DNA of 25,362 nt from a bacterium (GTDB lineage Bacteria > SZUA-182 > DTGQ01 > JAFGSM01). The position numbers and the translations under genes were made by a program. Numbering within the stretch: the stretch's first letter is position 1; every line of letters starts with the position of its first letter. Location of the stretch: positions 1-25,362 of the forward strand of contig JBLIRP010000041.1 in the NCBI GenBank assembly GCA_049472355.1. Reading direction: 5' to 3'. Under the pieces are notes generated by a model that saw nothing but the letters and a program-made list of their open reading frames with translations, was not told where the DNA came from and made no database searches. Below, one piece after another: positions 1 through 25,362 of the stretch.

Positions 1-26
1 TTGTTGTAAAGTCTGTTTTCAGGCAT
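1..26 (-). CDS. 5' end of the next operon gene (MPENRLYN...), truncated by the window edge; product unknown
   Basis: ATG at 26-24 overlaps the stop of the upstream gene (ATGCCTGA) and is preceded by GAGGAG at 36-31; only 8 codons are visible. Confidence 0.6.
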
Positions 27-1230
27 TTTTCTCCTCTGCTTCACCAAGGGAATATTTCAAAAGTTCTCTCAATTCGACATTGATCGATCCCTTATTCTTC
101 GAAAGAAACTTTTGTATGGTCATCACCTGCAAGGCCCCGGTGGGGCAATTGCTCACGCATGCCCTTGTACTGTACTCGGCACACCCATCACACTTTATGG
201 CGATGCGAGCCTTCCGTCTCTTCATAATATTGTTGTCGATGTACTCGAGGGTAATGGCATCGGTCGGACAGATCTTCGCACACTCACCGCACCCGGTGCA
301 GGTATCGGAGAGTTCCATGAAGGGTGTGCCGATCCTTCGCCGAACCCCGCGCTCTGAAAAACAGATCGCATTGGCGCCGATCACCTCTTCGCACACGCGA
401 ATACAAAGGCCGCAGAGTATGCATTTGTCAGGGTCATGCCGTGGACTGAAACGGCTTTTTTCGAGGCCCATCTCACGGGCCATGTCCCTGATCAATTCAG
501 ACTCCGGGCACCGGGCCATGAGCAGCTCCAGGATCATGCGCCGGTACTTCTCGATTTTTTCCGAGGTGGTTTTCACCGCGATGCCCTCCTGCACCGGATA
601 TACGCAGGAAGGGACACGCCGGGTGCGGTTTCCCCGCGTCACCTCCACGATGCACAATCGGCACACCCCAACCGTGCTCACCGACTGGTGGTAACACAGC
701 CGCGGGATCTTGATACCGTAGCGGTCCGCGACCTCGATGAGGGTCTCTCCCTTCTTACCGACCACCCGTTCCCCGTCGATGCTGAATTCGATCAGTTCCT
801 CCTGTGGCCGGTATTCAAGGACAACCCGTTCCTCCATACTCGGGTGCTTCTTGAGGTAGTCCTTGATCGCGACAAGAAGCCGGCTCGTGTAATCCTCCGT
901 CTTGATGATACAATCCGTGGCACCCATCCGCACCACATCCTCGGCAATACCCTCGTTTCTCAGGCTGACCAGCATGATCACCGGCTTTCTAAACCGGTAT
1001 GTCTGCCTGATCTGTCTCAATGCTTGTCTGCCCTCCATTTCAGGCAAATCGTTGTCGATGATGATCAGATCGTATCCTGCGGATTTACCCAGACGGTCAA
1101 AGCACTGCTCCGCCGTATTGATATGCTCGATCACAAAGGATTCGTCAAATGCATGGATCTCCTTCTTCATCAACTGGGCATGGATAGGGTCGTCCTCGAC
1201 CATTAGAATCGTTACCATCGGCTTTTCCAT
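19..1230 (-). CDS. Receiver (REC) domain fused to a NuoG/HydA/HoxU-type N-terminal Fe-S module ([2Fe-2S] + 2x[4Fe-4S]) plus one extra C-terminal ferredoxin Cys group; no catalytic domain
   Basis: REC: ILMVEDD, YDLIIID, GATDCIIK. [2Fe-2S]: IPRLCYH..GVCRLCIVEV..PSC. Two ferredoxin motifs: CILCGLCIRVC and CTGCGECAKICP. Extra motif KCDGCAEYSTRACVSNCPTGAL. RBS GAGGTGAGG upstream. Confidence 0.88.
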   Translation of the reverse strand: MEKPMVTILMVEDDPIHAQLMKKEIHAFDESFVIEHINTAEQCFDRLGKSAGYDLIIIDNDLPEMEGRQALRQIRQTYRFRKPVIMLVSLRNEGIAEDVVRMGATDCIIKTEDYTSRLLVAIKDYLKKHPSMEERVVLEYRPQEELIEFSIDGERVVGKKGETLIEVADRYGIKIPRLCYHQSVSTVGVCRLCIVEVTRGNRTRRVPSCVYPVQEGIAVKTTSEKIEKYRRMILELLMARCPESELIRDMAREMGLEKSRFSPRHDPDKCILCGLCIRVCEEVIGANAICFSERGVRRRIGTPFMELSDTCTGCGECAKICPTDAITLEYIDNNIMKRRKARIAIKCDGCAEYSTRACVSNCPTGALQVMTIQKFLSKNKGSINVELRELLKYSLGEAEEKNA

Positions 1231-1315
1231 GACCTCACCTCTTTATTCCTCCTTAATTCCGGAATGGCATGCTGTTAGAGGGCAAATACTCCCACATGAT
1301 AGACGAGTATCGGCG

Positions 1316-2173
1316 TTACGAAAATTTACTCAGGATCAGGTTGATCTTATCAGGGGTAACCTTCCCGAAATACTCTCCGTCAATAACGATAACCGGACCC
1401 AAGGCGCATGCCCCCAGGCAGTTGACCGTTTCCAGGGTGAATTTTAAATCCTGCGTGGTTCCGCCGGCCTTTATCTTGAGAGACCTCTCCAGCTCTTCCA
1501 GGATCTTCCCCGCACCCCTTACATGGCAAGCGGTTCCCAAACATACGTGAATGGTGTGCCTGCCCCGGGGGGTAAGACTGAAGGCGGCATAAAAGGTCAC
1601 CACATTATAGATCCGATTCAGGGGCACGCCGATGCTGCTCGAAAGGGCCAGCAGGGCCTCCCTGGGCAGGTAATTGAATACACCCTGGATGTCCTGCAGC
1701 ATGCCGATCAGAAAACTCGGGTTCCGCTGGTATTTGCCGACGATCTCCTCGATCTTTCCGGTGTCGATTGAGGCCGGTTTCTTTTCTTCCACCGGTTTTA
1801 CGGTTTTCAATCCCAAAATGGAAAGGAATTTCTCCTTGTAGGAGGCCTCGGTATCCTGCCCGGAGAACACGAGGATTGCATTGTAGGGGCAGCTCCTCAT
1901 ACATAAACCGCACCCCACGCAATTGGCGGTTACGACAATATGTCCTTCCTCGTCACGTTCGACCCCACCCCGGTTGCACGCCTCGATGCACCTCGGGTCC
2001 CGGCAGATCCTACACAGGTTGGGAACAAGGCTGATCCCGATAAGCGCGGAGCGTTCCCTTACGTGCCTCGACACATCCTTGTGCCTGCGCTTGCACGCAT
2101 CGATACAGTTCGCGCAATTGAGACAATGCTTGATGTTACAGACGACTATCGATGTTTTTTCCATTGTGCTCAT
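1316..2173 (-). CDS. DmsB/CooF-type ferredoxin fragment (three Cys groups) fused to a NuoE/HydC-type [2Fe-2S] subunit
   Basis: N-terminus: CLNCANCIDAC, CRICRDPRCIEAC, CVGCGLCMRSCP. C-terminus: LIGMLQDIQ..YLP, VVTFY, CLGTACHVRG, CLGACALGP, typical of NuoE. Confidence 0.9.
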   Translation of the reverse strand: MSTMEKTSIVVCNIKHCLNCANCIDACKRRHKDVSRHVRERSALIGISLVPNLCRICRDPRCIEACNRGGVERDEEGHIVVTANCVGCGLCMRSCPYNAILVFSGQDTEASYKEKFLSILGLKTVKPVEEKKPASIDTGKIEEIVGKYQRNPSFLIGMLQDIQGVFNYLPREALLALSSSIGVPLNRIYNVVTFYAAFSLTPRGRHTIHVCLGTACHVRGAGKILEELERSLKIKAGGTTQDLKFTLETVNCLGACALGPVIVIDGEYFGKVTPDKINLILSKFS

Positions 2174-2208: not shown

Positions 2209-4068
2209 TTACACAACCTTAATTGCCTCGAATTTGCAGTTCTCGCGACAGATGCCGCACTTGATGCACTTTTCCTGGTCTATGGTATGCGGTTTTTTCT
2301 TCTCGCCGCTTATAGCCCCCTGGGGGCAGAACTTTACGCAGCGGCCGCACCCGATGCATTTCTGCTCATTGATGGAAAAGGTGATAAGCTCCTTGCATAC
2401 CCCGGCAGGACAGCGTTTATCCTTGATGTGGGCATCGTACTCCTCGCGGAAATAGCGAATCGTTGAAAGGACGGGATTGGGAGCGGACCCACCGAGGGCA
2501 CAGAGGGAGTTCTCCTTGATAAACTCGCTCAACTCCTGGAGCAAATCAATATCCCCCTCATTTCCCCTTCCCTCGGTGATGTTGGTGAGTATCTCCAGCA
2601 TCCTGTTCAACCCCTCACGGCAGGGGACGCATTTGCCGCAGGACTCCTCGGTGAGAAAGGCAATGAAGTATTTCGCCACGTCCACCATGCAGGTGACCTC
2701 ATCCATGACGATCATGCCGCCCGACCCCATCATCGATCCCGCCTCGGTCAGCTTGTCAAAGTCAACAGGAATATCGATGATGGATTCCGGGATACACCCA
2801 CCGGACGGTCCCCCTGTCTGCACCGCCTTGAACTTCTTTCCTCCAGGGATACCCCCGCCGATATCAAAGATGATCTCCCTGAGGCTGATCCCCATGGGCA
2901 CCTCAACCAGTCCGGTGTTGTTTATCTTTCCGACCAGGGAGAAAATCTTCGTCCCCTTGCTCCCGTCGGTCCCGATCTGTGAATACCAGTCAGCGCCGCG
3001 GTCGATGATCAGGGGGACATTTGCCAAGGTCTCCACATTGTTGATGACCGTAGGTTTGTTATACAGCCCGCTCTCAACGGTGTGGATATATTTGGGCCGC
3101 GGTTCCCCCGGCTTTCCCTCCAGCGAGGCAATGAGCGCGGTGGATTCCCCGCATACGAAGGCCCCTCCCCCTTTTGAAATCACGATATCAAAGTCGAAAT
3201 CAAAACCGAGGATCCGCTCCCCGAGAAGCCCCGATTCCCGCGCCTGTTTCAAGGCGATGGTCAGGTTTTCAACGGCAAGGGGGTATTCGTTGCGCACGTA
3301 TACATATCCGTGGCGTGAGCCGATGGCATAGGCGCCGATGATCATCCCTTCCACCACGCTGTGGGGGTTCCCTTCAAGGAGGCTTCGATCCATGTATGCC
3401 CCTGGATCGCCCTCGTCGGCATTGCAGATGATGTAGCGGACCCCGTCGGGCGCATGGGCCTTGTGGGCTGATTCCCATTTCCTGCCGGTATGGAACCCGC
3501 CGCCGCCTCGTCCCCGAAGCCCCGATTTCTTTATCTCCTCGATCACCTGGACAGGGGTCATGGAGGAGAGGGCCTTGGCAAGGGCGGCATAGCCGCCGAT
3601 CATGACATAATCCTCTATGCTGGTGGGATCCAGAATGCCGTTATTGCCGAAAATGATCCGTTCCTGTCCTTTATAAAAGGGCACCTCCTCCTCGTACTGC
3701 GCACGGTTGCCGGTCACCGGGTCCACATAGAGAAGCTTTTCGATGATGTTCCCCTTGAGAATGGTCTCTTCAACGATCGCGGGAATATCCTCAATGCCTA
3801 CCCTCTGGTAGAGGATCTTTTTCGGGTGAATGACGATTAGTGGACCGCGTTCGCAAAAGCCGTGGCACCCGGTTAATTTCAAATCAACCTTATCGCTTAT
3901 TCCATGTTTCTCGATCTCCCTGCGAAAGGTATCGACCACATCCATGCATTTATAGGCCCTGCAGCCGGTTCCGGTGCAGATTGATATGATGCTCTTTTCG
4001 GTATCCCGCTGCTTATTAATTTCCTCTCGTAACTGTTTCAGGTCAGCTACCGAGAACAATCTCTTCAT
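2209..4068 (-). CDS. NuoF/HydB/HndC-type FMN- and NAD(H)-binding subunit with N-terminal thioredoxin-like [2Fe-2S] domain and C-terminal 2x[4Fe-4S] domain
   Basis: CTGTGC..GCHGFCERGP; SGLRGRGGGGF; CNADEGDPGAYMDR; GAFVCGE; GGPSGGC; ESCGKCVPCREG..SLCALG; HIKDKRCPAGVC; CIGCGRCVKFCP and CIKCGICRENC. Confidence 0.95.
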   Translation of the reverse strand: MKRLFSVADLKQLREEINKQRDTEKSIISICTGTGCRAYKCMDVVDTFRREIEKHGISDKVDLKLTGCHGFCERGPLIVIHPKKILYQRVGIEDIPAIVEETILKGNIIEKLLYVDPVTGNRAQYEEEVPFYKGQERIIFGNNGILDPTSIEDYVMIGGYAALAKALSSMTPVQVIEEIKKSGLRGRGGGGFHTGRKWESAHKAHAPDGVRYIICNADEGDPGAYMDRSLLEGNPHSVVEGMIIGAYAIGSRHGYVYVRNEYPLAVENLTIALKQARESGLLGERILGFDFDFDIVISKGGGAFVCGESTALIASLEGKPGEPRPKYIHTVESGLYNKPTVINNVETLANVPLIIDRGADWYSQIGTDGSKGTKIFSLVGKINNTGLVEVPMGISLREIIFDIGGGIPGGKKFKAVQTGGPSGGCIPESIIDIPVDFDKLTEAGSMMGSGGMIVMDEVTCMVDVAKYFIAFLTEESCGKCVPCREGLNRMLEILTNITEGRGNEGDIDLLQELSEFIKENSLCALGGSAPNPVLSTIRYFREEYDAHIKDKRCPAGVCKELITFSINEQKCIGCGRCVKFCPQGAISGEKKKPHTIDQEKCIKCGICRENCKFEAIKVV

Positions 4069-5154: not shown

Positions 5155-5901
5155 CTATTCCCTCTTTCGATAGTCATCGCCGACGATCTCCAGCACCTGG
5201 CACATCTCGTACAGGCGAGAGCGAAGACGGTATCCGATACGTTCGGTCAGGGTATCCTCCTCGTCCTCGGCATCATCCATCCAGTTCGAGGTGATGATCG
5301 TGATCCGCTTCTCGCTATACCGCTGGTTGATGATATAGGTGAGGGTGTCGCGCATCCATTCGGTGACCTTTTGGGCCCCCAGTTCATCCAGCACGAGCAC
5401 CTCCTTCTCGAGAACCGGCCCCAGGACCGCACTTTCGGACAGGGAGGAATGCACATTGTAGGTGGATTTTATCTCGGTAAGGAGATCTCGGAAGTCATAG
5501 AAGATGCAGGGCACTCCCTTTCGGTTGATCAATTCGAGAATGATGGCCACCGCAAGGTGCGTCTTGCCCACACCGCAGCGCCCCATGAAAAGGAATCCCT
5601 CGTTGACCACCGGAAATTGGCGAACGAATTTCTCCGCCATCTCCTTTACCATCCCGAGGCTTACCTGATTCCTTCCGGAGTGTGGCTGAGGCGGCTGTTT
5701 TCCCTTCGGCATGATCTGAAAATTATCCAGGAGGCAGTGCCTGTACCTGAAGGGAATCCTCGCGGAGTCGAGCAACTGCTTGCGCCGTTTCACCAGGTAA
5801 CAGTCGCACCGGCGAACAGTCTCGATCCCGTCTTCCTCCTGCACGACCCATCCGGAATCATGACACACCGGACAGGGACCGGTTCTTTCCTCAAGTTGCA
5901 T
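5155..5901 (-). CDS. DnaC/DnaI/IstB-family AAA+ ATPase (helicase-loader-like) with N-terminal Zn-binding motif
   Basis: CPVC..CDC; Walker A GRCGVGKTHLA; Walker B VLVLDELG; ITSN; RLRSRL. ATG at 5901 has a GGAGG RBS and overlaps the upstream stop (the ORF track start at 5922 is less likely). Confidence 0.88.
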   Translation of the reverse strand: MQLEERTGPCPVCHDSGWVVQEEDGIETVRRCDCYLVKRRKQLLDSARIPFRYRHCLLDNFQIMPKGKQPPQPHSGRNQVSLGMVKEMAEKFVRQFPVVNEGFLFMGRCGVGKTHLAVAIILELINRKGVPCIFYDFRDLLTEIKSTYNVHSSLSESAVLGPVLEKEVLVLDELGAQKVTEWMRDTLTYIINQRYSEKRITIITSNWMDDAEDEEDTLTERIGYRLRSRLYEMCQVLEIVGDDYRKRE

Positions 5902-6598
5902 ACAGACTGATCCTCCGTGCATTCACCTTGTTGCGCACCAGGCTCTCCATACCAAGTTCGAGGGTTTCGCGGTAGGTGTCTCGATCCATTTGCTGTCTAT
6001 ACGGTGCCAATTCCGCCTCCACCTCCCGCAGCCACGATTCCTTCGCCTCAGAGGGGAGGAGGCTCAAGAGTGCCTGCATATACCCCTGATCGAGCATGGA
6101 GAGTCTCCCTTCGATCCCGTCGATGTTGATGTCCTCCGGGGCCTCGATCTCGTGCTCAATCCTGTCAAACTCGCCGGACCACCTTACTGTGTCGAGTGCA
6201 CGCGCCTTGAGATCCCCCCACTCTCCCTCTGCCCGGGCCTCATCGCACAGCCCCCGGCGTATGCAGGCCATCCTTGTGCGGAGCATTGCGGTTATTGGTT
6301 CCTCTCCGTGATGATCGCCTTTCCTGTCATCCTCGGGGGCGCCAAGGAGCGACCGTCGATGCTCCTTCCACAACCTCATTATCTCGGGCTCGCAGTAGGT
6401 CAACAGATCGATCCGTTCCTCCCCTTCCTGGTGGGTGGCGCGAAACCCACGGCATGTCTTCCGGATCCCCTTGCACACGATATGGACGGGGATGCCCATC
6501 TGCTCCCATCGTTCGGCAACGACCCAGTTCCGAGGGGAAAGGACTGTCCCCTGCCTCCGGTATTTGAAAAAATATTCCTCTATCTTTGCAAGATACAT
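5891..6598 (-). CDS. Hypothetical protein with a DnaD-domain-like N-terminus, overlapping the DnaC-like gene
   Basis: IEEYF..LSPRNWVVAERWEQMGIPVHIVCKGI resembles the LSP..W..P..V...I pattern of DnaD/DnaB_2 domains. ATG at 6598 is preceded by GAGG. The CDS is solid; the function is inferred. Confidence 0.65.
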   Translation of the reverse strand: MYLAKIEEYFFKYRRQGTVLSPRNWVVAERWEQMGIPVHIVCKGIRKTCRGFRATHQEGEERIDLLTYCEPEIMRLWKEHRRSLLGAPEDDRKGDHHGEEPITAMLRTRMACIRRGLCDEARAEGEWGDLKARALDTVRWSGEFDRIEHEIEAPEDINIDGIEGRLSMLDQGYMQALLSLLPSEAKESWLREVEAELAPYRQQMDRDTYRETLELGMESLVRNKVNARRISLYAT

Positions 6599-6640
6599 AT
6601 GCGCCTCGAGAAAACCAATACAATAAATGTCCAATATCCT

Positions 6641-12032: not shown

Positions 12033-14027
12033 TCACCCATACCCCTGCTTTATGTGCTCGATTTCCTCACGGATGATCTTCTCCGCCAGGTCGGGGACCC
12101 TTCTTTCAACATTCTGATTGATCTCATTGAGAACCATGTGGGCGATCTTCTTCTCATCGATAATATGGGCGAGCTTCTCCTGAATCATTTTTTTGGTCAT
12201 CTCAGGAAGGGCTTGTTCCGTGAGCCTGCCCATCTGTTCCTGAATGAGGTTCCTGGTAAGTTCCGGAATGGCCTGGGTGACCATCTGCTTCATGTGCTCC
12301 TGCACAAGCCGTTTGGTCAGTTCCGGAACCGCTTGCTGCGTCAGATTGCCCAGTTGTTCCCGAATGAGATTCTTGGCAAGCTCCGGCACCGATTGGCTGA
12401 TCGCCTGATTCATGTGCTCCTGTACAATCCGTTTGGTCATCTCCGGAATAGACTGCTCGGTCAATTTGGTAATCTGTTCCTGAATGAGATTCCTGGTGAG
12501 ATCCGGCACTGATTGGCTGATCACCTGATTCATATGCTCCTGCACAAGCCGTTTGGTCATCTCCGGAATGGACTGCTCCGCAAGGGTATGCATCTGTTCC
12601 TGCAGCATCTCCTTAAGACGCGTTTCCATCTCCTGCATATCCAGCAACGGCTTTGCAGGCGCAGCCTTCTCCAGGGGCACCCCTCCTGCTGTTTCCTCCC
12701 CCTCTTTCTCAACGGGAGGAGCCGGTGAAGCACCTTCAGCTTCGATCGGTTTATCGGCGGATTCACCCGGAGTGGAAGTAGCCTTGAAGAATTCATCCAA
12801 TACCGATTGCTGGACCTGTTCCTGGGAAAGGCCTTCTTCGCCGCCGGCATCTGCGGGAGATGCATGGGCATCGTGAGAGGAAGGGGCTGCCTGCTGCTGT
12901 TTATCTTCGGACTGGGCGTATGCCTGAGGGGATTCCACACCGGCCTTGTCCCCCTCGGCATCTCTTCCCCGTCGTATTGCCTCTTCAACCACCTTTATGG
13001 TCTCCTCCAGGGCCTCCTCAGCACTCAACGTCGGATGTTCGACTTCCCCTTCGCGCAGGATTGCATCGCCCTCCTTGGGGCCCACCTGGGGTGCTTCCGG
13101 CTGAGCCTCCGGCATCTCCGCTCCGGCCTGCGGCATCTCCTCCATCAGCAGATCCGAAGGCGCCTCTCCCGTGTCCGCACCCGCGGGCTCCGGCCCTGCT
13201 GCCCCCTCAGGCGGCTCCTCAACCGGGTTGATCTCGATCCCCTCCAGCACGTCCTCGAAACCCGCAAACGGCTCCTGCGCACCATCCCCCTGCCCCGCTT
13301 CCGGCTGTGCCTCCGATGTCTCCGCTCCGGCCTGCGGCATCTCCTCCATCAGCAGATCCGAAGGCGCCTCTCCCGTGTCCGCACCCGCGGGCTCCGGCCC
13401 TGCTGCCCCCTCAGGCGACGCCTCAACCGGGCTGATCTCGATCCCCTCCAGCACGTCCTCGAAACCGGCAAACGGCTCCTGCGCACCATCCCCCTGCCCC
13501 ACCTCCGGCTGTGCTTCAGGCATCTCCGCTCCGGCCTGCGGCATCTCCTCCATCAAGAGCTCCGAGGGTGCCTCGTGCGCTTCCACTTCTTTCGCCGGCC
13601 CTGCTTTGCCGGAGAGGTCCTTGGTGAGGGGATCTGAGGCAGCAGACTGTTTTGCCATGAAATATTGAACCGTGCTGAGCAGTTTTGCGGATTCAAGAGG
13701 AACGCCGAGTACCTTATCCGCCTTGCAATCCTTTCCCAGGGACTCCAATTGTTCATCGCCCCCGTCTTCGGCCTTTTTTACGAGTACGATCAGGGGCAGT
13801 TGCGCAAATGCCTGGTCCGATTTTATTTCGTTGCACAGGGAGACACCGCTGCCTTCCTGCATATCGCGGTCTATAATGAGAAGATCGGGACCCTGTGATT
13901 TCATCGATTGCCTGAAGTCATCGATATCATTGGCAGGGATGATCTCATAGTCCGTATCGGTCAGATTCCATTCGACTTCCTTTAGGATGGTGATACTGCT
14001 GCTCCCAAGGATTATTTTCTTGCTCAT
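12033..14027 (-). CDS. RomR-like protein: degenerate receiver domain, long acidic Pro/Ala-rich linker and repeated C-terminal helices
   Basis: N-terminal REC fold (PDLLIID, SGVSLCNEIK, LPLIVL). C-terminus VPDLAEKIIREEIEHIK resembles the conserved RomR C-terminus as I recall it. Lies directly upstream of valS. ATG at 14027 with AGGAGGGGAGG RBS. Confidence 0.75.
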   Translation of the reverse strand: MSKKIILGSSSITILKEVEWNLTDTDYEIIPANDIDDFRQSMKSQGPDLLIIDRDMQEGSGVSLCNEIKSDQAFAQLPLIVLVKKAEDGGDEQLESLGKDCKADKVLGVPLESAKLLSTVQYFMAKQSAASDPLTKDLSGKAGPAKEVEAHEAPSELLMEEMPQAGAEMPEAQPEVGQGDGAQEPFAGFEDVLEGIEISPVEASPEGAAGPEPAGADTGEAPSDLLMEEMPQAGAETSEAQPEAGQGDGAQEPFAGFEDVLEGIEINPVEEPPEGAAGPEPAGADTGEAPSDLLMEEMPQAGAEMPEAQPEAPQVGPKEGDAILREGEVEHPTLSAEEALEETIKVVEEAIRRGRDAEGDKAGVESPQAYAQSEDKQQQAAPSSHDAHASPADAGGEEGLSQEQVQQSVLDEFFKATSTPGESADKPIEAEGASPAPPVEKEGEETAGGVPLEKAAPAKPLLDMQEMETRLKEMLQEQMHTLAEQSIPEMTKRLVQEHMNQVISQSVPDLTRNLIQEQITKLTEQSIPEMTKRIVQEHMNQAISQSVPELAKNLIREQLGNLTQQAVPELTKRLVQEHMKQMVTQAIPELTRNLIQEQMGRLTEQALPEMTKKMIQEKLAHIIDEKKIAHMVLNEINQNVERRVPDLAEKIIREEIEHIKQGYG
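12174..12593 (-). repeat. Seven 60-bp (20-aa) coding repeats alternating as A/B 120-bp units
   Basis: MHTLAEQSIPEMTKRLVQEH / MNQVISQSVPDLTRNLIQEQ / ITKLTEQSIPEMTKRIVQEH / MNQAISQSVPELAKNLIREQ / LGNLTQQAVPELTKRLVQEH / MKQMVTQAIPELTRNLIQEQ / MGRLTEQALPEMTKKMIQEK. Confidence 0.92.
13092..13574 (-). repeat. 204-bp (68-aa) near-identical coding tandem repeat, two full copies plus a partial third
   Basis: GATCCGAAGGCGCCTCTCCCGTGTCCGCACC recurs at 13151 and 13355; APS(E/D)LLMEEMPQAGAE occurs three times. Confidence 0.95.
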
Positions 14028-14054
14028 ACCTCCCCCTCCTTTCAAATTGAGGTA

Positions 14055-14157: not shown

Positions 14158-14928
14158 ATGTTGAAGAAAAGGCTTAGAGATATCCTGGAAAGGGTGAACA
14201 ACGGTCACCTGTCCATTGACAAGGCCATGGAGGAACTCCGTTTTTTCCCCTACGAACGGTTATCCCATGCACGGGTTGACCACCATCGCTGCCTGAGGAC
14301 CGGCATCCCGGAAGCCATTCTCTGCACAGGCAAGAGCATTGACCAGGTGAAATCCATAGCCCGAAATATCCTGGAACGCGGCGGGAATCTTCTGGCCACC
14401 CGGGCTGAGGAGTCAATCTACCGGGCACTGAAGGATCTGGATGAGCGGGTGATCCACCATCCAGTCGCCCGCATGATCACCCTTATCCAGGAACCGTGTC
14501 CGGAGACGGAGGGATTGGTGGAGATCATTACCGCCGGGACAGGTGACATACCGGTTGCGGAAGAGGCGAAGGTCACCTGCAATGCCTTGGGCAGCCGCGT
14601 GGATACCCTCTACGATGTCGGGGTTGCGGGGATTCACCGTCTCCTGGATGAGGAGCAGAGGCTTTTCCAGGCCCGGGTGATCTGCGTGGTTGCAGGCATG
14701 GAGGGAGCACTGGCAAGTATCGTGGGCGGTATCACCGAATGCCCGGTTATAGCGGTTCCCACCAGCGTGGGCTACGGCGCCCAGTTTCAGGGGCTCGCCG
14801 CCCTCCTCACCATGATAAACTCCTGTGCCCCGGGCGTGGCGGTCGTCAACATCGACAACGGATTCGGCGCCGGATGTCTGGCTCACAAGATCAACCGAAT
14901 CGGCGAGACCAGGGGAACAACCCCGTGA
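14158..14928 (+). CDS. larB: Nickel-pincer nucleotide cofactor biosynthesis protein LarB (PurE-like)
   Basis: ARVDHHRCLRTGIPE, TAGTGDIPVAEEA, DVGVAGIHRL, AGMEGAL, PVIAVPTSVGYG, NSCAPG, VNIDNGFGA. Confidence 0.95.
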   Translation: MLKKRLRDILERVNNGHLSIDKAMEELRFFPYERLSHARVDHHRCLRTGIPEAILCTGKSIDQVKSIARNILERGGNLLATRAEESIYRALKDLDERVIHHPVARMITLIQEPCPETEGLVEIITAGTGDIPVAEEAKVTCNALGSRVDTLYDVGVAGIHRLLDEEQRLFQARVICVVAGMEGALASIVGGITECPVIAVPTSVGYGAQFQGLAALLTMINSCAPGVAVVNIDNGFGAGCLAHKINRIGETRGTTP

Positions 14929-16124
14929 ACATCCTCTTTGCCGATTGTTTCTCGGGAATAAGCGGGGACATGTTCCTTGGAGCGCTTATTGATCTTGGCG
15001 TGGAAAGGGACTGGCTGTGCGAATCGCTTTCATCCCTCGGACTTCCTCCCTTCTCCCTTGAGGTCGCAACGGTCAGAAAGGGGGCAATCCAGTGCACCCA
15101 GTGCAGGGTCATTGACAGGGGTGGACCGCCGGTCGAGAGGGGCCTCCGGGAAATCACCGGCATGATCGAAGCAAGCCCTCTTCGGCCATCCATCAAGGAA
15201 AAGGCCGTTCGCCTCTTCAGTGTCCTGGGCGAAGCGGAGGCAACAATACACGGCATCCCCGTCGAGAAGGTCCATTTCCACGAATTGGGCGCACTCGACG
15301 CGCTGGTGGAGATCATCGGGGTGCTCCTCGGCTACGATCGCCTGGGAATCGACGCCCTGTTCGTGTCGCCGCTCCCTCTCGGACGCGGCGTCATTTCCAC
15401 CCGGCACGGTCCCATTCCCGTTCCATCGCCCGCCACTGTGGCGCTCCTTAAGGACGTCCCCGTCATCCATACCGGCCTGGACGCAGAACTGGTAACCCCC
15501 ACCGGCGCACTCCTGGCAACCCAGCTTGCAAAGGGGTTCGGCATGCCTCCCCAGATGAAGATACAAAGGGTCGGCTACGGGGCAGGCGAACGGGACCTGC
15601 CTGAGCGGCCCAACTGTCTGAGGCTTATCCTGGGGGAAACGGATGGGGAGTATGAGGAGGAAACCATCGAGGTCCTCGAATGTGACATCGATGACATGAA
15701 CCCCGAGTTTTACCCGCACCTTACGGAACGTCTTTTCAACGCCGCCGCCCTGGATGTCACCCTGTGCCAGATCATCATGAAAAAGGGGAGGCCCGGCACC
15801 AGGGTGACCGTGCTGAGCCGGATTCACACCACCACCCAGCTCGTCGCCATACTCCTCGCTGAGTCGTCCACCCTCGGCGTACGTATCCATCGGGTGAGCA
15901 GGTCCAAGGCATCCAGGCGGATCGTGAAGATACAGACGGCATATGGACCGGTGAGGGTGAAGTGCGCATGGAGGGATACGACACTCCTCACCATTTCACC
16001 CGAATATGAAGATTATTCAGAAATTTCCCGAAAATATAATAGGCCGGTTAAATCTATCTACCAGGAGATCATGTCAGAGGCCCTGAAACAGGTCAAAAAT
16101 CTTGTAGACCAGCGGGAGATATGA
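14925..16124 (+). CDS. larC: Nickel-pincer cofactor nickel insertase LarC
   Basis: GTG start overlaps the larB stop (GTGA); DCFSGISGDMFLGAL, VHFHE, ELVTPTGA, GYGAG, IDDMNPE, MKKGRPG, STLGVR, PEYED. Confidence 0.93.
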   Translation: MNILFADCFSGISGDMFLGALIDLGVERDWLCESLSSLGLPPFSLEVATVRKGAIQCTQCRVIDRGGPPVERGLREITGMIEASPLRPSIKEKAVRLFSVLGEAEATIHGIPVEKVHFHELGALDALVEIIGVLLGYDRLGIDALFVSPLPLGRGVISTRHGPIPVPSPATVALLKDVPVIHTGLDAELVTPTGALLATQLAKGFGMPPQMKIQRVGYGAGERDLPERPNCLRLILGETDGEYEEETIEVLECDIDDMNPEFYPHLTERLFNAAALDVTLCQIIMKKGRPGTRVTVLSRIHTTTQLVAILLAESSTLGVRIHRVSRSKASRRIVKIQTAYGPVRVKCAWRDTTLLTISPEYEDYSEISRKYNRPVKSIYQEIMSEALKQVKNLVDQREI

Positions 16125-17791: not shown

Positions 17792-18418
17792 ATGTCAAGG
17801 AAATTAACGGCAGCAATAATCGCAATCATGTCTATCCTGATGTTTGCACTTTTTATGACTTCTTCACCGGTTCCGGCGCAAGAACCCGATCGTTCAGCTT
17901 CATGGCATGAAACCCAGTATGGGACCGACGCCTGGGGGGGAACCTGGATGATGGGGCAATTCGGACCGGATGTGGGCATTGGGGAGCAGGGAACGGTGTA
18001 TGAGTACACGGATCCCCGCACCGGCACCTATGTCAGCTACTCGAGCGTGGGCATGGGAGCGGGACTCGGTGGCGCGATGATGGGGTATGGCGGTATGTTC
18101 AGCCCTGTGGCGCAGGCGTCATACGGGCCCTATGCCGGCGGCAACAGGCCGCAGGTGGGGTCGACCCCCGGCTATGACACCCAGGGCTATCTTTCCGGCA
18201 GTCTCTGGGGTCCGAATGTCAGCATGTATCAATCAAGGTATAACCCCATGGCCGGCATGATGTTTGGGCTTATGGGTATGCTGGGCGGCGGCTATGGCGG
18301 CTACGGCGGCTATGGCGGCTATGGCGGCTATGGTGGATTCGGCGGCTACGGCGGCTTCGGCGGCTTCTCTCCTTTCAGTGGAGCCTCTGCCGGCAGCTAT
18401 CCGACGGTGATGTGGTAA
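17792..18418 (+). CDS. Secreted Gly/Tyr/Met-rich low-complexity protein of unknown function
   Basis: AGGAGGGG RBS; Sec-type signal peptide MSRKLTAAIIAIMSILMFALFMTSSPVPA|QE; GG[Y/F] repeats; followed by a terminator. Confidence 0.85.
   Translation: MSRKLTAAIIAIMSILMFALFMTSSPVPAQEPDRSASWHETQYGTDAWGGTWMMGQFGPDVGIGEQGTVYEYTDPRTGTYVSYSSVGMGAGLGGAMMGYGGMFSPVAQASYGPYAGGNRPQVGSTPGYDTQGYLSGSLWGPNVSMYQSRYNPMAGMMFGLMGMLGGGYGGYGGYGGYGGYGGFGGYGGFGGFSPFSGASAGSYPTVMW
18287..18367 (+). repeat. Nine 9-bp coding repeats encoding GG[Y/F]
   Basis: GGCGGCTAY / GGCGGCTTC units giving GGYGGYGGYGGYGGYGGFGGYGGFGGF. Confidence 0.95.
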
Positions 18419-18543: not shown

Positions 18544-19641
18544 CTATCGCGGGAATGCCCTGTATGCCTCCTCGAGAAACACCAGAAATCGATCGGACTC
18601 CACGTTGACATCCTCCCGTATGCGGAGCTGGATCTGATCGATGCCTCCCTCCTTTTTCTTCACGAAGACACAGCTTGGCAACGCTGCCTCGTCGATCAGC
18701 ATTTCCTCGCTGTCAATCCGCTCGATCTTCAGTGTTTTCGCAATGTCATCGGCGGTGAAGGTATCTTCCCTGACGGTAAAATCGAGCCTGAGAATGTCAG
18801 GTGTGGTTCCCAGATAAAGCCACTCGGCATTATTGATACGGTACATGATGTAGCTTTTCTGTTCCCATAGGGGGCCTTCCACATCGAAATGCTCCCTGAG
18901 CACCCGCTCCAGCTTCACACAGATCGCCTTTGTCTGAGGGCTGCACCGCTTTTCGAGGTGCCATTCCCTCCACTTGGCATCAGGCGTGTCCGCTGCCGGT
19001 TCCATTGCCTCCGGTTCTTGTGAATCCGCAGCCTCGGAAGTTTCACCACGTTCGGCCGGAACGAGGATATCGGGTTGAATCAGTATGGTCCCCTCATCTT
19101 TGAATGCCTGCAACTCCACAATCGTGACATCGATGGCGTGCTTTCGAAGCCAGAGGGCATAGGTGACGAGACTGTCGCTGATGAGGGAACCGGTCACAAT
19201 GATTCTCTGTTCCTGATTTATCGGGGGTATCTTCTTTATCCCCGCATCCTTGCAAAACTCCGTGAATACCCGATTGAAATCAAAGCCGGGATTCCTCCCC
19301 CTTGCCAAGAACCCCTTTGCCTGGGCCTCGAATTCCTTCAGCGTCCACTTGGCAAGGTGCGCGGCATATCTGAGCGACCTGATCTCAAGGGATTCCCGGT
19401 CAAGGGAGCGCTTGACCTCGACAAGCACGGCATTCCCCTTCACATCGAGCGCCAGAAAATCGAGCTTGTCCTCCGCGGTGTGCATACCCACCTGTCTTCC
19501 AATCAACATGAGCGGTTCACCAAGGAGCTGGGGAGTTTCGGCAATCTTATCGTCGATGAAGCCCTCGAGTATATTCCCTTCCCTGATCCGGTTCTCTTGT
19601 GATAATCTCTTTCCCCTCTGCGCAATCTTCAGGATCGCCAT
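18544..19641 (-). CDS. NucS/EndoMS-like PD-(D/E)XK nuclease-domain protein with an uncharacterised C-terminal domain
   Basis: E..LEGFI, LIGRQV, KLDFLALDVKGNAVLVEVKR, then LRYAA; acidic linker; second globular domain. Confidence 0.7.
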   Translation of the reverse strand: MAILKIAQRGKRLSQENRIREGNILEGFIDDKIAETPQLLGEPLMLIGRQVGMHTAEDKLDFLALDVKGNAVLVEVKRSLDRESLEIRSLRYAAHLAKWTLKEFEAQAKGFLARGRNPGFDFNRVFTEFCKDAGIKKIPPINQEQRIIVTGSLISDSLVTYALWLRKHAIDVTIVELQAFKDEGTILIQPDILVPAERGETSEAADSQEPEAMEPAADTPDAKWREWHLEKRCSPQTKAICVKLERVLREHFDVEGPLWEQKSYIMYRINNAEWLYLGTTPDILRLDFTVREDTFTADDIAKTLKIERIDSEEMLIDEAALPSCVFVKKKEGGIDQIQLRIREDVNVESDRFLVFLEEAYRAFPR

Positions 19642-20203: not shown

Positions 20204-23200
20204 ATGACAACACGCAGTAACAACGCCATATACATTGAGGGCGCCCGGCAGCACAACCTGAAGGGGTTTGACTGCGCAATCCCCCTCAATCGGATCACCG
20301 TGATCACCGGGGTGAGCGGTTCGGGAAAATCGAGCCTTGCCTTCGATACCCTGTATGCAGAGGGACAGCGGCGCTACATCGAAACCTTCTCACCCTACGC
20401 CCGCCAGTTCATGGATCGCATGGATAAACCGCAGGTTGACCGAATCGAGGGGATTCCCCCGGCCATCGCCATCGAGCAGGGGAGTCCGGTGAGGACCTCC
20501 CGCTCCACGGTGGGCACCATCACCGAACTGACCGATTTCATCAAGATCCTGTTCGCGCGCACCGGCGAGCTCCATTGCCGGATCTGCTCCCGGAAGGTGG
20601 TCAGGGAAGCCCCCGATACCATAGGGGATGCCCTGTTCCGCGAACACCAGGGCTCGCCCGTAATCATAGCATTTCCCTGCGCCAAGGCGGATCTCGACCC
20701 TGCACTGGTCAGGCAGGAGCTCATGCGGGAGGGTTTCTCCCGTATACTCGAAGGGGACGATAGTGTGGATATCGAGGAGTCCGGGCTTGAGGTCCCTTCT
20801 CTGCAGGTGATGGTGGACCGCCTGACGCTCGCGCCGGAGGAAAGGGCACGGGTGATCGACTCCGTCGAACAGGGTCTTCGATACGGCCATGGTCATGTCC
20901 TGATCAAAATCATGGGGGGAGAGCTTCTCCGCTTCAGTAGCCATCTGCACTGCCCTTACTGCGACATCCATTACAAGGACCCCGTCCCCAACCTTTTCTC
21001 CTTCAACAGCCCCCTGGGGGCATGCAGCACCTGCCGCGGCTTCGGGAGGATCATCGATATCGACCTGGACAAGGTGATCCCCAATCCTCGCATCTCCCTC
21101 GAGTCCGGCGCGATCAAGCCATGGGACACCGATTCCCACGAGCTCCGCAAGCTGATGAGATTCTGCTCCCGGGAAGGCATACCGGCGGATATACCCTTTT
21201 CCGCCCTCAGCGAGGAGCATAAGGGGATGATCATTGATGGGGGGCGCCGTTTCTTCGGGGTTCGCGGCTTTTTCAAGTGGCTGGAGGGCAAATCCTACAA
21301 GATGCACGTGCGGGTGTTCCTCTCCCGGTACCGGGGATACTTCACCTGCCCTGATTGCGGGGGTACCCGGTTCAAACCGGAGGCCCTGCTCTACCGGATA
21401 CGGGGGCTCACCATCGCGGAGATCTATTCCCTCTCCATAGACCAGGCATTCCGGTTCTTCACGGAAATCCCGGAAGCCCCCCTCGATGATGCGTCCCGCA
21501 TGCTGCAGAGAGAGATCACCAGCCGCCTGCGCTATCTGAACGAGGTGGGGCTCTCCTACCTCACCCTGAACCGGCAGTCCAGGACACTCTCCGGGGGCGA
21601 GGTGGAGCGGGTGAGCCTCACCAAGGCCCTGGGCTCATCCCTGGTCAATACCCTCTACGTGCTCGATGAGCCCAGCATCGGCCTCCACCCCCGGGACAGC
21701 AACCGGCTGGTGATGCTGCTCAGGGAGATCTCCGCACAAAACACGGTCGTGGTGGTGGAGCACGATCCGGAGATCATTGCAGGGTGCGATCATCTCCTCG
21801 ACCTCGGCCCCGGGGCGGGGGCCTGTGGCGGAAATGTGGTCTATGCAGGCCCCCTGGCGGACATCCACGCATCCAGGGATTCGGTCACCATCGACTACCT
21901 CACCGGAAGGTCCATGATCCCGGTGCCGGCCAGCCGCACGAAGCCTGATCCACAAAACAGCATCCGCATCAAGGGGTGCAGGGAGAACAACCTGAAGAAC
22001 ATCGACATCACCATCCCCCTGGGGCTCATGGTCTGCATCACCGGGGTCTCGGGCTCGGGCAAGAGCACCCTTGCCGAGGAGATCATCTACAAGGGGATCA
22101 GGCAGGTGAAGGGGTATGCGGTTGAAAGGCCCGGGGAATTCGACGCCATGGAGGGCACGGAGCTCATCGACAATGTCCTCCTCATCGATCAAAGCCCCAT
22201 CGGGAAGACTCCCCGGGCAAATCCCCTTACCTACATCGGGGCCTTCGATCCGATCCGCAAGCTGCTCGCCAAGACCCCCCTTGCCCGGGAGCGGGGGTAC
22301 ACGCCGGGCGCCTTCTCCTTCAACGTGCCGGGTGGACGGTGTGAAACCTGCATGGGAAACGGATACGAGAAGGTGGAGATGCAGTTTCTGTCCGATGTAT
22401 ACATCACCTGTCCCGACTGCAACGGTTCCCGGTTCAGGAAGGAGGTCCTGGAGGTCACCTACAAGGGAAAAAACATCGGCGACATCCTGAACATGACCTT
22501 TGACGAGGCCGACACCTTTTTCGAGGATATCCCGTCCATCACCACCATGTTCCAGCCGATCATGGACGCGGGAATGGGATACCTCCGCCTGGGTCAGCCG
22601 GTCAACACCCTGTCCGGCGGAGAGGCTCAGCGGCTGAAGCTTGCCAAATACATGGGATTCAGCCCCGGACGCAACATCCTGTATATCTTCGATGAGCCCT
22701 CCACCGGTCTCCACTTCGCGGATATACGGAAACTGCTCGAGGCATTCCAGCGCCTCATCAACGAGGGAAAGACCCTGCTCGTCATCGAGCACAACATGGA
22801 TATTGCAAAATGCGCCGACCATATCATCGACCTTGGCCCGGAGGGGGGTGACGGGGGTGGATGGGTCGTTGCCAAGGGCACCCCCGAGGAGGTTGCCTGG
22901 GTAAAGGATTCCCATACCGGACGCTTCCTGCGGAAATATCTGGAACAACCGCACCCTGTCTGGGTCCGGCCGGATACGCCCCCGGCTCCCGTCCCGGTGC
23001 CCCATGCTGACGCCATCGCCATCAACGGGGCTCGGGAACACAACCTGAAAAACATCACGGTGAACATCCCCAGGGACAAGATGGTGGTGATCACCGGGAT
23101 AAGCGGCTCGGGGAAATCCACCCTCGCCTTTGACGTACTCTTTGCCGAAGGCCAGCGGCGCTATATCGAGAGCCTCCCCACCTACGTGCGGCAGTACCTC

Positions 23201-25362
23201 AAGATAATGGAGCGAAGCGACGTCGACCTGATCACCGGCATCCCCCCGACGGTCGCCATTGAACAGCGGATGAGCATGCTCCACCTTCGCTCCACGGTTG
23301 CCACCATCACCGAGATCTACCACTACCTGCGCCTCCTCTTCAGCAAGGTCGGGACCCAGCACTGCCTGTGCAGGATACCCATAGCTCCTCAGTCTGAGGA
23401 GGACATGCTGAATCGTTTCATAAATTACTTTAACAACCATGAGTTTCTTCTTTTATCACCGAAGGTTATAAAGCGAAAAGGAATCCACCGCGACGTCATG
23501 GAGCATGCCTTCAAAAAGGGATACCGGCAGGCACGGGTGGACGGTGCCATGGTGGACCTGGAGCATCCTCCCTCTATCGCACGGTACAAGGAGCACTCCC
23601 TGGACGTAGCCATCGACCGGATCCGGGTGGACCCCGAAGACAGGGAGCACCTCGTCTCGGCCATATCCCTCGCCCTCCAGGAAGGCAGGGGCCAGTTCTA
23701 TGCACTGGACATGGAGAACAACATAGAGGAGACCTTCAGCAGAAAGGGATACTGCCCGCACTGCGGCACCGCCTTCGAACCGGTGGATCCCAGGCTCTTT
23801 TCCTTCAACAGCCGTTTCGGCGGATGCCCGGCCTGCGACGGGCTGGGAATCTCCACGGAAACCGGGGAACGCTGCACCCGCTGTCAGGGCACCAGGCTGA
23901 ACGAGCGCGCCCTTTCCATCAAGATCGGAGAGTATACCATCGCGGACATGGCGAGCCTCGCCGTGGAGGATGCGATGCGGTTCTTCCCCTCCCTGCGTTT
24001 TCCCCCCCGGGACCGGATCATCGCCGATCTCCTCATCCCCGAGATCATGGTTCGGTTGGCCTTTCTCCAGAGGGTGGGCCTCTCCTATCTCACCCTCGAC
24101 CGGAGCGGAAACACCCTGTCAGGGGGGGAGACCCAGCGCATCCGTCTGGCAGCACAGTTGGGCTCAAACCTGCGGGGGGTATGCTACATACTGGATGAGC
24201 CCACCATCGGGCTCCACCCCCGCGATAATGCCACCCTTCTTGACACCCTCACAGAATTGAGGGACCGGGGAAACAGCGTCATCATCGTGGAGCACGACGA
24301 GGAGACCATACGGAGGGCTGATCACGTGCTGGATCTCGGTCCTGAGGCGGGCATGCACGGAGGCCGGGTGGTGGCCCAGGGCCCGCCGGAGGCGATCCAG
24401 GCAGAGCCGGGATCGATCACCGGAGCATGGCTCGGACATCCTGATCGTCACACCATCACCTCACACCGCCGCGCTGCTCCAGAGAACAGGTGGCTCACGG
24501 TCAAGGGTGCGTCGGTATACAACCTCAAGGAGATCGATGTGGGCATCCCCCTCGGCACCCTGGTGTGCATCACCGGTGTGTCAGGGTCCGGCAAGAGCAC
24601 CCTCCTCAGGGAGGTCATTCTCAAAGGGCTCCAGGCGCTCTTCGACCGAAAGGGCATCCCGGGGCACACCTGCAGGCAGATCGAAGGGTGGGAGCATCTG
24701 GAACGCGTGCTCGAGGTGGACCATTCCCCCATCGGCAAGACACCCCGTTCAACGCCCGGCACCTATATCGGTTTTCACGACGCCATCCGCAGGCTCTTTG
24801 CCATGCTCCCCGAATCGCGGATGCGCGGGTATCAGGGGGGGCGGTTCTCCTTCAACGTGAAGGGAGGCCGGTGCGAGGCGTGCCAGGGCCAGGGAAGGAT
24901 CAGGGTGGAGATGAGCTTCCTTCCCGATGTGTATGTGGAGTGCGAGGTATGCGGGGGAAAACGGTTCAACGAGGAGACCCTCGGCGTCACCTACCGGGGG
25001 AAAAACATCGCCGAGGTCCTCGACCTGACCATCGAGGAGGGCCTTGAATTCTTCTCCGCCGTACCGCAGATCGTACACCCCATCAAGATCCTGAACGACA
25101 TGGGACTCGGGTATCTCCACATCGGCCAGGCGAGCAATACCCTCTCCGGCGGGGAGGCCGAGCGCATCAAACTGGCCTCCGAACTGACCAAGAAGAGCCA
25201 TGGGAAGACCCTGTACATCCTCGACGAGCCCACGACCGGTCTCCACCTCGCGGACATCAAGAAACTCATGGGGGTGCTCCAACGACTGGTGGACCTGGGA
25301 AACACGACACTGATCATCGAACACAACCTGGAGGTCATCAAGGAGGCCGATTACATCATCGA
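20204..25362 (+). CDS. uvrA: Double-length (tandem-fused) excinuclease ABC subunit A, 3'-truncated by the window edge (at least 1719 codons)
   Basis: ATG at 20204 gives [20 protein letters not shown]. Four in-frame Walker A motifs (20309, 22043, 23096, 24575), four LSGGE signatures and two AEGQRRYIE motifs. It is absent from the ORF track because there is no stop in the window. Confidence 0.96.

Follow-up and report, generated by a model that had tools for sequence, protein, structure and literature searches.

A four-cluster ferredoxin cut in two and fused to the BfuC and BfuA subunits of a predicted Type-2 Bfu module

How can a four-cluster ferredoxin function when its cysteine groups are encoded by two different genes? 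The question is raised by the left end of a 25,362-nt stretch of bacterial DNA (contig JBLIRP010000041.1 of assembly GCA_049472355.1), referred to below as the window, which is the entire contig C85 of a genome (G000) with a size of 3.49 Mb and a completeness of 87.5%. Three minus-strand genes lie at this end (2209-4068, 1316-2173 and 19-1230), and their analysis confirms that a ferredoxin of the HycB/CooF/NarH type, with four [4Fe-4S] clusters, has been cut in two and its parts fused to two different enzyme subunits. The features of this region and the basis on which each was recognised are as follows, with lengths and positions within proteins in amino acids (aa).

2209..4068, minus strand: bfuB, NuoF/HydB-like, 619 aa (Pfam and PDB matches, motif positions).
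1316..2173, minus strand: bfuC fusion, 285 aa, consisting of the N-terminal half (N-half) of the four-cluster ferredoxin, a linker and a NuoE domain (domain search, full-length homologues).
1889..2125, minus strand: cysteine groups I (C17/20/23/27), II (C54/57/62/66) and III (C85/88/91/95) (invariant in alignment).
1808..1850, minus strand: predicted amphipathic helix past group III, ~aa 108-122 (alignment, hydrophobic moment).
1322..1753, minus strand: NuoE/BfuC domain, aa 141-284, with [2Fe-2S] ligands C211, C216, C252 and C256 (PF01257, E 2e-48).
19..1230, minus strand: receiver (REC)-bfuA-group IV fusion, 403 aa (domains, best PDB match).
892..1209, minus strand: receiver domain, aa 8-113 (Pfam and orthologue alignment).
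268..795, minus strand: BfuA core, with A1 [2Fe-2S] (domain aa 146-223) and A2/A4 2x[4Fe-4S] (C270-C321) (Pfam, PDB match).
130..195, minus strand: cysteine group IV, C347/350/358/362 (KCDGCAEYSTRACVSNCPTGAL), followed by C-terminal helices (invariant; match to HycB group IV).
1..26, minus strand: start of a membrane-protein gene, with an ATG at 26-24 that overlaps the bfuA stop; the gene continues on contig C84 (sequence).

Residues 1-105 of the BfuC fusion match aa 5-117 of a HycB-like paralogue encoded in the same genome (37 of 100 positions identical) and residues 338-403 of the BfuA fusion match aa 118-178 of the same protein (25 of 57 identical, with a score of 96 that was reached by none of 500 shuffled sequences). 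The two halves tile this paralogue end to end without overlap, and they also tile a one-chain relative, P0128; a Pfam match is to PF13247. The best PDB match of an intact relative is HycB3 of HDCR (7QV7; E 4e-16), with both parts aligned. All four groups show the spacing of the HycB/CooF/NarH family, group IV being spaced C-x2-C-x7-C-x3-C-P as in HycB. In HycB, HydN, CooF and NarH proteins, which share this four-group spacing, all groups are on one chain whereas here groups I-III and group IV are on two genes; the first frame stops at 1316, a separate start is present at 1230, and the separation is kept in relatives. The initial annotation, made from the window alone, had placed groups I-III in a NuoE-like protein at nt 2125-1889 and an extra group IV at the end of the downstream protein at nt 195-130, had considered both open reading frames (ORFs) intact with proper starts, and had proposed, as a check, an alignment of the joined pieces to DmsB/CooF profiles. 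These claims are borne out by the positions of C17-C95 and C347/350/358/362, by two open frames that both begin with an ATG preceded by purine-rich sequence, and by the end-to-end tiling of the HycB-like paralogue.

The phylum, which is uncultured, was represented by 20 genomes, and 14 loci were fetched from relatives. The BfuC fusion is present in 12 of the 14, the remaining two carrying an intact ferredoxin, and so the split recurs in other genomes, where the initial annotation had suggested looking for it; among 120 matches listed, 24 are full-length BfuC-fusion homologues with 58-95% identity. A BfuA-group IV gene is located beside the BfuC fusion in 11 of the 12 fusion loci, the remaining one being cut by a contig end. 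Each of 25 aligned rows keeps all 12 cysteines of groups I-III, and each of 11 keeps all four of group IV. Matches to the N-half and to group IV are equal in number in 18 of the 20 phylum genomes (11 with both, 7 with neither), and in the two unequal genomes, G003 and G012, the missing half falls at a contig end. The halves stay together despite changes in gene order, including one locus in which the group IV gene is ahead of the N-half gene. A scan of all species returned 12 strong matches, all to metagenome-assembled genomes, and three weak matches, and close relatives of the split arrangement were found only within this phylum. Contigs from other runs bridge bfuC-bfuA (X5 875-1408) and bfuB-bfuC (X5 2058-2850), with none spanning the whole stretch. 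A misassembly or frameshift is ruled out by the full-length homologues, the relative loci and these junction-bridging contigs, and pairing of group IV with the product of the next gene downstream is ruled out as this is a membrane protein without cysteine groups. The split wire is a real, lineage-restricted variant that is easy to test.

As judged from sequence, the three genes, bfuB (complete), bfuC and bfuA, together form a HydABC-like Bfu module of Type 2. BfuB aligns over its full length to HydB/BfuB structures and its four best PDB matches are Bfu B subunits (E<=2e-233). It has the ligands of an N-terminal [2Fe-2S] cluster (B5; C31, C36, C68 and C72), an FMN/NAD domain with A224-Y-M226, the B1 [4Fe-4S] cluster and a C-terminal 2x[4Fe-4S] domain (B3/B4), and the B2/Zn-site ligands C460, H547, C553 and C558 have identical counterparts in two aligned HydB chains. 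Pfam matches are to PF01512, PF10531 (SLBB), PF10589 and PF00037, and to PF01257 on BfuC. The Bfu diagnostic residues A202 and M204 (A. mobile numbering) are present as A224 and M226; the mapping of the diagnostic F182 is uncertain, as, if this is the Phe after KW, the window BfuB has Ser and T. kivui HydB has Gly at this position. The same gene cluster encodes BfuC with one [2Fe-2S] cluster, the ligands of which (C211/C216/C252/C256) are invariant in the family alignment, and BfuA with a [2Fe-2S] and 4Fe-4S domains. The best PDB match of BfuA aa 141-403 is WorA (9mqx_A, E 6e-40). In Type-2 Bfu enzymes, as described in PMC9304861, BfuA lacks A3 and A5, and extra subunits hold the third substrate. 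The window BfuA lacks the A3 motif, with only C241 left there, and A5 with the C-terminal catalytic domain, and is therefore assigned to Type 2. The downstream subunit, considered HydA-like in the initial annotation, has no H-cluster domain and is a Type-2 BfuA, not a hydrogenase. The genome has three further NuoE/NuoF/NuoG-like (Bfu) sets (G000 C68:567-7568 and C138); the neighbours of one further set are a HycB-like gene and an [FeFe]-hydrogenase-like gene with a PAS domain, and another set adjoins an acetyl-CoA synthase gene.

The operon continues on contig C84, out of sight of the initial annotation and one base beyond the window, as judged by comparison of the junction with a related genome, G001. 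There, a gene for a membrane protein of ~294 aa is followed by a gene for a cytochrome c that has nine haems and a hydrophobic segment at its N-terminus, and then by a REC-PAS gene. In all 11 complete split loci the membrane-protein gene follows bfuA, a 6- or 9-haem cytochrome is next in 10 of the 11, and in most loci the cytochrome gene overlaps or directly follows the membrane-protein gene. The membrane protein has no significant Pfam match; its homologues number 1,823 representatives at E<=0.001. Among the 102 of the top 150 homologues with lengths of 250-340 aa, H101 and H115 are present in 100% and H267 and H281 in 88-89%, in WX3HX13H motifs accompanied by SGXXG. The G001 orthologue has W97/H101/H115, W263/H267/H281, S137-G141 (SGXXG) and about five hydrophobic stretches. 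PCC3/PCC4 inner membrane proteins (IMPs), as described in PMC5566968, are proteins of ~300 aa with five predicted helices, two WX3HX13H motifs and SGXXG, and are predicted to be di-haem b proteins. By these motifs, the membrane protein is of the four-histidine type and matches the PCC3/PCC4-type IMP definition, and its AlphaFold2 (AF2) model has a pLDDT of 89. For comparison, 20 loci were picked from 34 genomes with a membrane-gene match outside the split lineage, several of these loci being cut by contig ends. In 15 of the 20 a ferredoxin-FAD/NAD(P)H oxidoreductase gene is beside the membrane gene, in 19 of 20 there are multihaem cytochromes, and in none of the 20 is NuoE/F/G adjacent. As the outside neighbour is an NAD(P)H-linked flavoprotein, the Bfu module takes that place in this phylum. 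Inspection of the ORFs at the fetched loci, with no porin family search made, revealed neither a recognisable porin nor an extracellular or giant cytochrome. Elsewhere in the genome there are 36 open frames with at least three CxxCH motifs, six of them with 24-60; these giant multihaem cytochrome frames, on G000 C92, C67, C136 and C80, have 60, 49, 28, 26, 25 and 24 CxxCH, suggesting extracellular electron transfer. The REC-PAS gene follows the cytochrome gene in the window's genus (L021:8190-9068 and G000 C84), and other two-component genes follow it at other loci. In G006 (L027:13774-19999) genes for antiporter-like complex I membrane proteins (PF00361) lie immediately ahead of the operon on the same strand.

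The lineage also has one-chain and partly rejoined forms of the ferredoxin. P0128, a single chain, is 92% identical over 133 aa to the start of a split BfuC and 89% identical over 75 aa to the BfuA end of that same split locus. Intact one-chain ferredoxins of 217-232 aa exist, as do ferredoxins of 496-499 aa fused to the membrane protein, and partial re-fusions of 374-380 aa in which a Cys-less NuoE remnant and the BfuA 2x[4Fe-4S] domain are positioned between groups III and IV. A group IV sequence of the window type serves as group IV inside intact four-group proteins. A free N-half gene of 124-132 aa recurs, and the free N-half and the 374-380-aa fusion recur as a pair in three metagenome contigs. 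A paralogous operon (L035:2342-6970; G000 C61:55342-59970) encodes a free 132-aa N-half, a 380-aa fusion, a REC-BfuA-group IV protein, a membrane protein and a 6-haem cytochrome, and intact BfuC and BfuB, missing from its surroundings, may be supplied by the window's operon. At this locus there are two N-halves for two group IVs, and the free N-half balances a group IV on another gene.

The gene order between the halves is C-B-A in G006, G009, G011, G013 and L053; bfuB is upstream in G000-G005 and after the cytochrome gene in G007, G010, G012 and L055, and a second G006 locus has the order A-membrane-cytochrome-B-C. The simplest account is probably that a C-B-A block (nuoE-nuoF-(REC)nuoG) was inserted into the loop between groups III and IV, and that bfuB moved later. 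The initial annotation had proposed insertion of a nuoE-REC-nuoG block into this loop of an ancestral ferredoxin gene. The block more probably included nuoF as well, given the C-B-A order, and the G013 BfuA has no receiver domain. The intact genes of this phylum appear to be derived and not to represent such an ancestor, and none of the 20 outside loci, several of them cut by contig ends, has an intact ancestral ferredoxin beside the related membrane gene. In a tree of the membrane subunit (35 rows, with 18 outside homologues as the root), which reflects the history of the ferredoxin only by proxy, three intact loci nest within 14 split loci under starred branches, and a clade of the split loci is rejected (approximately unbiased test, p=0.0064). 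Because of this nesting the intact genes are read, with moderate confidence, as re-fusions and not as ancestors. In a tree of the ferredoxin itself, P0128 and the 374-380-aa fusions are placed separately among the split loci.

Which cysteines would then hold which clusters? In NarH, FS1 is ligated by C16/19/22 and C263, FS2 by C26 and C244/247/259, and groups II and III hold FS3 and FS4 (PMC5338063, Table 3), in agreement with the rule given in the initial annotation that group I pairs with IV and group II with III. In the window proteins, group I has no partner unless this is group IV, and the reverse, and two clusters would therefore be shared between the chains. This earlier suggestion is supported, at the level of sequence, by the equal copy numbers, the invariant cysteines and the natural re-fusions, and with NarH as the analogue it is very likely that two [4Fe-4S] clusters are jointly ligated by BfuC and BfuA. 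The BfuC and BfuA parts would fold together on assembly, one predicted ligand set being C17/20/23 of BfuC with C362 of BfuA and the other C347/350/358 of BfuA with C27 of BfuC, with groups II and III as the ligands of the remaining two, both inside BfuC. A NarH-like geometry and the tether suggest that the shared clusters may form the end of the wire that faces A4. Once rebuilt, the wire would run from the A4 cluster of BfuA to the inner haem of the di-haem membrane protein, which would pass electrons to the membrane-anchored 6- or 9-haem cytochrome c. The predicted path would run from NADH (with reduced ferredoxin) through FMN and BfuBC, A1-A2-A4, the four-cluster wire and two b haems to the cytochrome c.

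That the five proteins form one complex is quite probable, and we consider it likely, and the best overall explanation, that the split ferredoxin is rebuilt on a BfuC-BfuA assembly to provide a wire to the membrane haem protein and cytochrome. Such a complex would most likely oxidise NADH, probably together with reduced ferredoxin (confurcation), and would export the electrons to the organism's many large periplasmic or outer cytochromes, its likely role being to pass electrons from NADH and ferredoxin out to periplasmic cytochromes. Bifurcating chemistry is probable, with rather less assurance, and the outward direction, argued on thermodynamic grounds and by analogy with flavoprotein-fed relatives, is modestly favoured.

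Several observations weigh against parts of this proposal. The AF2 model of REC-BfuA alone, from an 11-row alignment, is of low confidence over the 2x[4Fe-4S] domain and group IV (pTM 0.41), and therefore neither shows nor excludes the use of group IV within its own chain. The membrane protein has no clear fold match, with all Foldseek E values >0.4, and the b561-type structure 5oc0 (Z 8.2, root-mean-square deviation 3.3, 133 aligned) ranks level with unrelated helical bundles. P0128 comes from a single contig of 1.5 kb and may be a chimera of the assembly, and the ferredoxin tree, with one HycB outgroup on a branch 4.5 long, has its root among the intact forms and is flagged as unsure. At the position of group IV, the WorA zinc finger begins with an aligned CxxC (PMC12318220), and group IV has a weak similarity to a BfuA zinc-finger tail, with a score of 43 that is above all 500 shuffles (maximum 42). 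These last two points would favour a metal site internal to BfuA, either a WorA-like zinc finger or a single cluster, with group I of BfuC as a separate site or a relic. We consider this very unlikely: the group IV spacing fits that of HycB and not the CxxC...CxxC of the C68 BfuA tail, the HycB score is 96 versus 43, which favours a ferredoxin over a zinc finger, the same sequence is group IV in intact four-group proteins, and group I is invariant. If anything, there is slightly less to be said for half-ferredoxin homodimers, in which group I would pair with I' and IV with IV' to join two Bfu protomers. Designed half-ferredoxins do form homodimers with two clusters, and the natural PD1 is modelled as a homodimer (PMC12648291), but the halves here always co-occur in matching numbers, they can be rejoined almost unchanged into one chain, and the N-half recurs as a free 124-132-aa protein that, at C61, balances group IV on another gene.

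With the wire accepted as split between BfuC and BfuA, electrons might instead flow inward, from H2, formate or an external donor through periplasmic cytochromes, to reduce NAD+ and ferredoxin for the Wood-Ljungdahl pathway. The genome has acetyl-CoA synthase, NiFe hydrogenases and molybdopterin enzymes, Bfu enzymes are described as reversible (PMC9304861), and IMP clusters were first described in iron oxidisers (PMC5566968). This direction is nevertheless unlikely, as, on thermodynamic grounds, the flow would be against the membrane potential and leave electrons too weak for ferredoxin. Quinones could also be the electron partners of the membrane subunit, in which case the complex would be an NADH/ferredoxin:quinone oxidoreductase and the cytochrome an accessory. 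Quinone-active IMPs were proposed by He et al. (PMC5566968) and there are three UbiA-family genes in the genome, but such matches need not denote quinone synthesis, a search of the genome (87.5% complete) found no MqnA (PF02621), and the cytochrome gene's overlap with, or position directly after, the membrane-protein gene in most loci also counts against this alternative, which we regard as decidedly improbable.

Among the closest known systems to the split wire is WorABCSL, the Type-2 Bfu complex of Acetomicrobium mobile (9MQX; PMC12318220), in which BfuA also lacks A3 and A5, the BfuBC core is complete, and the four-cluster subunit WorS links A4 to the side of the third substrate, as is proposed here. 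WorS is, however, reported to be a single uncut chain that a C-terminal helix of WorA, located after the zinc finger, recruits without a covalent bond, and to dock to A4 by the end of the wire opposite to that with the shared clusters (PMC12318220). Here, the two parts of the wire belong to BfuC and BfuA, a receiver domain is present on BfuA, and the products of the linked genes are a predicted membrane haem protein and a cytochrome c in place of a tungsten enzyme. PCC3/PCC4 and MHC+IMP clusters, as described by He et al. in 2017 (PMC5566968), have the same IMP motifs, a similar protein size (~300 aa) and multihaem neighbours, with a pfam13247 Fe-S gene upstream of the IMP in PCC4 subgroup II, but the input here is a Bfu module and not a ferredoxin-FAD oxidoreductase.

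Clusters held by two polypeptides have precedents in photosystem I FX and the nitrogenase Fe protein. BchL (PMC7948495) and a mitoribosomal [2Fe-2S] cluster (PMC11791143) are described as further examples. All four are (pseudo-)symmetric dimers or non-ferredoxin folds, whereas the split proposed here divides a ferredoxin domain of the 2x[4Fe-4S] kind over two subunits that are unrelated to each other. Semidoxins and PD1 do assemble a two-cluster ferredoxin domain from two chains (PMC12648291), but are short, homodimeric and mostly designed peptides, unlike the heterodimeric pair here, which would be part of an enzyme complex. Inter-subunit clusters and half-ferredoxin dimers (PMC7948495, PMC11791143, PMC12648291), the Bfu core (PMC9304861) and the IMP motifs (PMC5566968) are thus already known. 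No description of a split heterodimeric wire, or of a cytochrome-linked Bfu, was found in the open-access literature, subscription papers and most supplements being outside the search, which probably did not cover a table of 1,558 BfuB clusters in PMC9304861 that may bear on novelty. The word cytochrome is absent from the main text of this family-defining Bfu paper.

If the proposal is correct, a heterodimeric ferredoxin occurs naturally within an enzyme, and the insertion of Fe-S clusters across a subunit interface could readily be tested with it, for which the split, partly re-fused and fully re-fused versions constitute a natural series for experiments. The Bfu family would gain a membrane, cytochrome-linked member, and the IMP membrane-protein family, through the predicted function, a handle from the donor side of known chemistry. 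Tentatively, and with less than even confidence, we suggest a new, membrane-bound type of electron-bifurcating Bfu enzyme in which the split ferredoxin fastens the BfuA and BfuC subunits together by two shared [4Fe-4S] clusters, which would not form before the subunits meet and would thereby serve as an assembly lock, and in which the wire couples NADH/ferredoxin confurcation, quinone-free, to multihaem cytochromes for extracellular electron transfer, re-fusion having occurred at least three times in the lineage.

The segment that follows group III is kept as a helix in the alignment of split, free and intact forms, and has a hydrophobic moment of 0.45-0.63 in six of eight proteins tested; in the window BfuC and P0129 the best amphipathic stretch is further downstream than ~aa 108-122. 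It is a possible membrane or partner anchor. The receiver domain of BfuA is probably degenerate in this family. Its phospho-acceptor D59 is present in the window copy, but is Asp in only two of the 10 REC-bearing orthologues; K110 is kept in the window copy; position 88, which by its spacing we take to be the expected Thr/Ser, is hydrophobic in 10 of 10, and Ser is present at 89 in six of 10. Scans for promoters and terminators gave results near chance (6 versus 3.5 +/- 1.7 expected and 7 versus 4.1 +/- 1.9), and contigs from RNA libraries cover the operon, a coverage that is no proof of transcription.

Elsewhere in the window, an IstB/DnaC-like ATPase gene is preceded by a conserved gene without a Pfam match (5155-6634, minus strand), both being syntenic in the genus, and a 670-aa protein (12033-14045, minus strand) has an N-terminal receiver domain, acidic internal repeats and C-terminal helical repeats. 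AIRC-like and nickel-insertion genes are present at 14158-16124 (plus strand) and are presumably larB and larC. A Gly/Tyr-repeat protein with a hydrophobic N-terminus (17792-18418, plus strand) and a 365-aa protein (18544-19641, minus strand) have no Pfam match at 1e-5. A frame of at least 1,719 aa (20204-25360, plus strand), cut by the contig end, encodes two tandem UvrA-like units with two UvrA interaction stretches.

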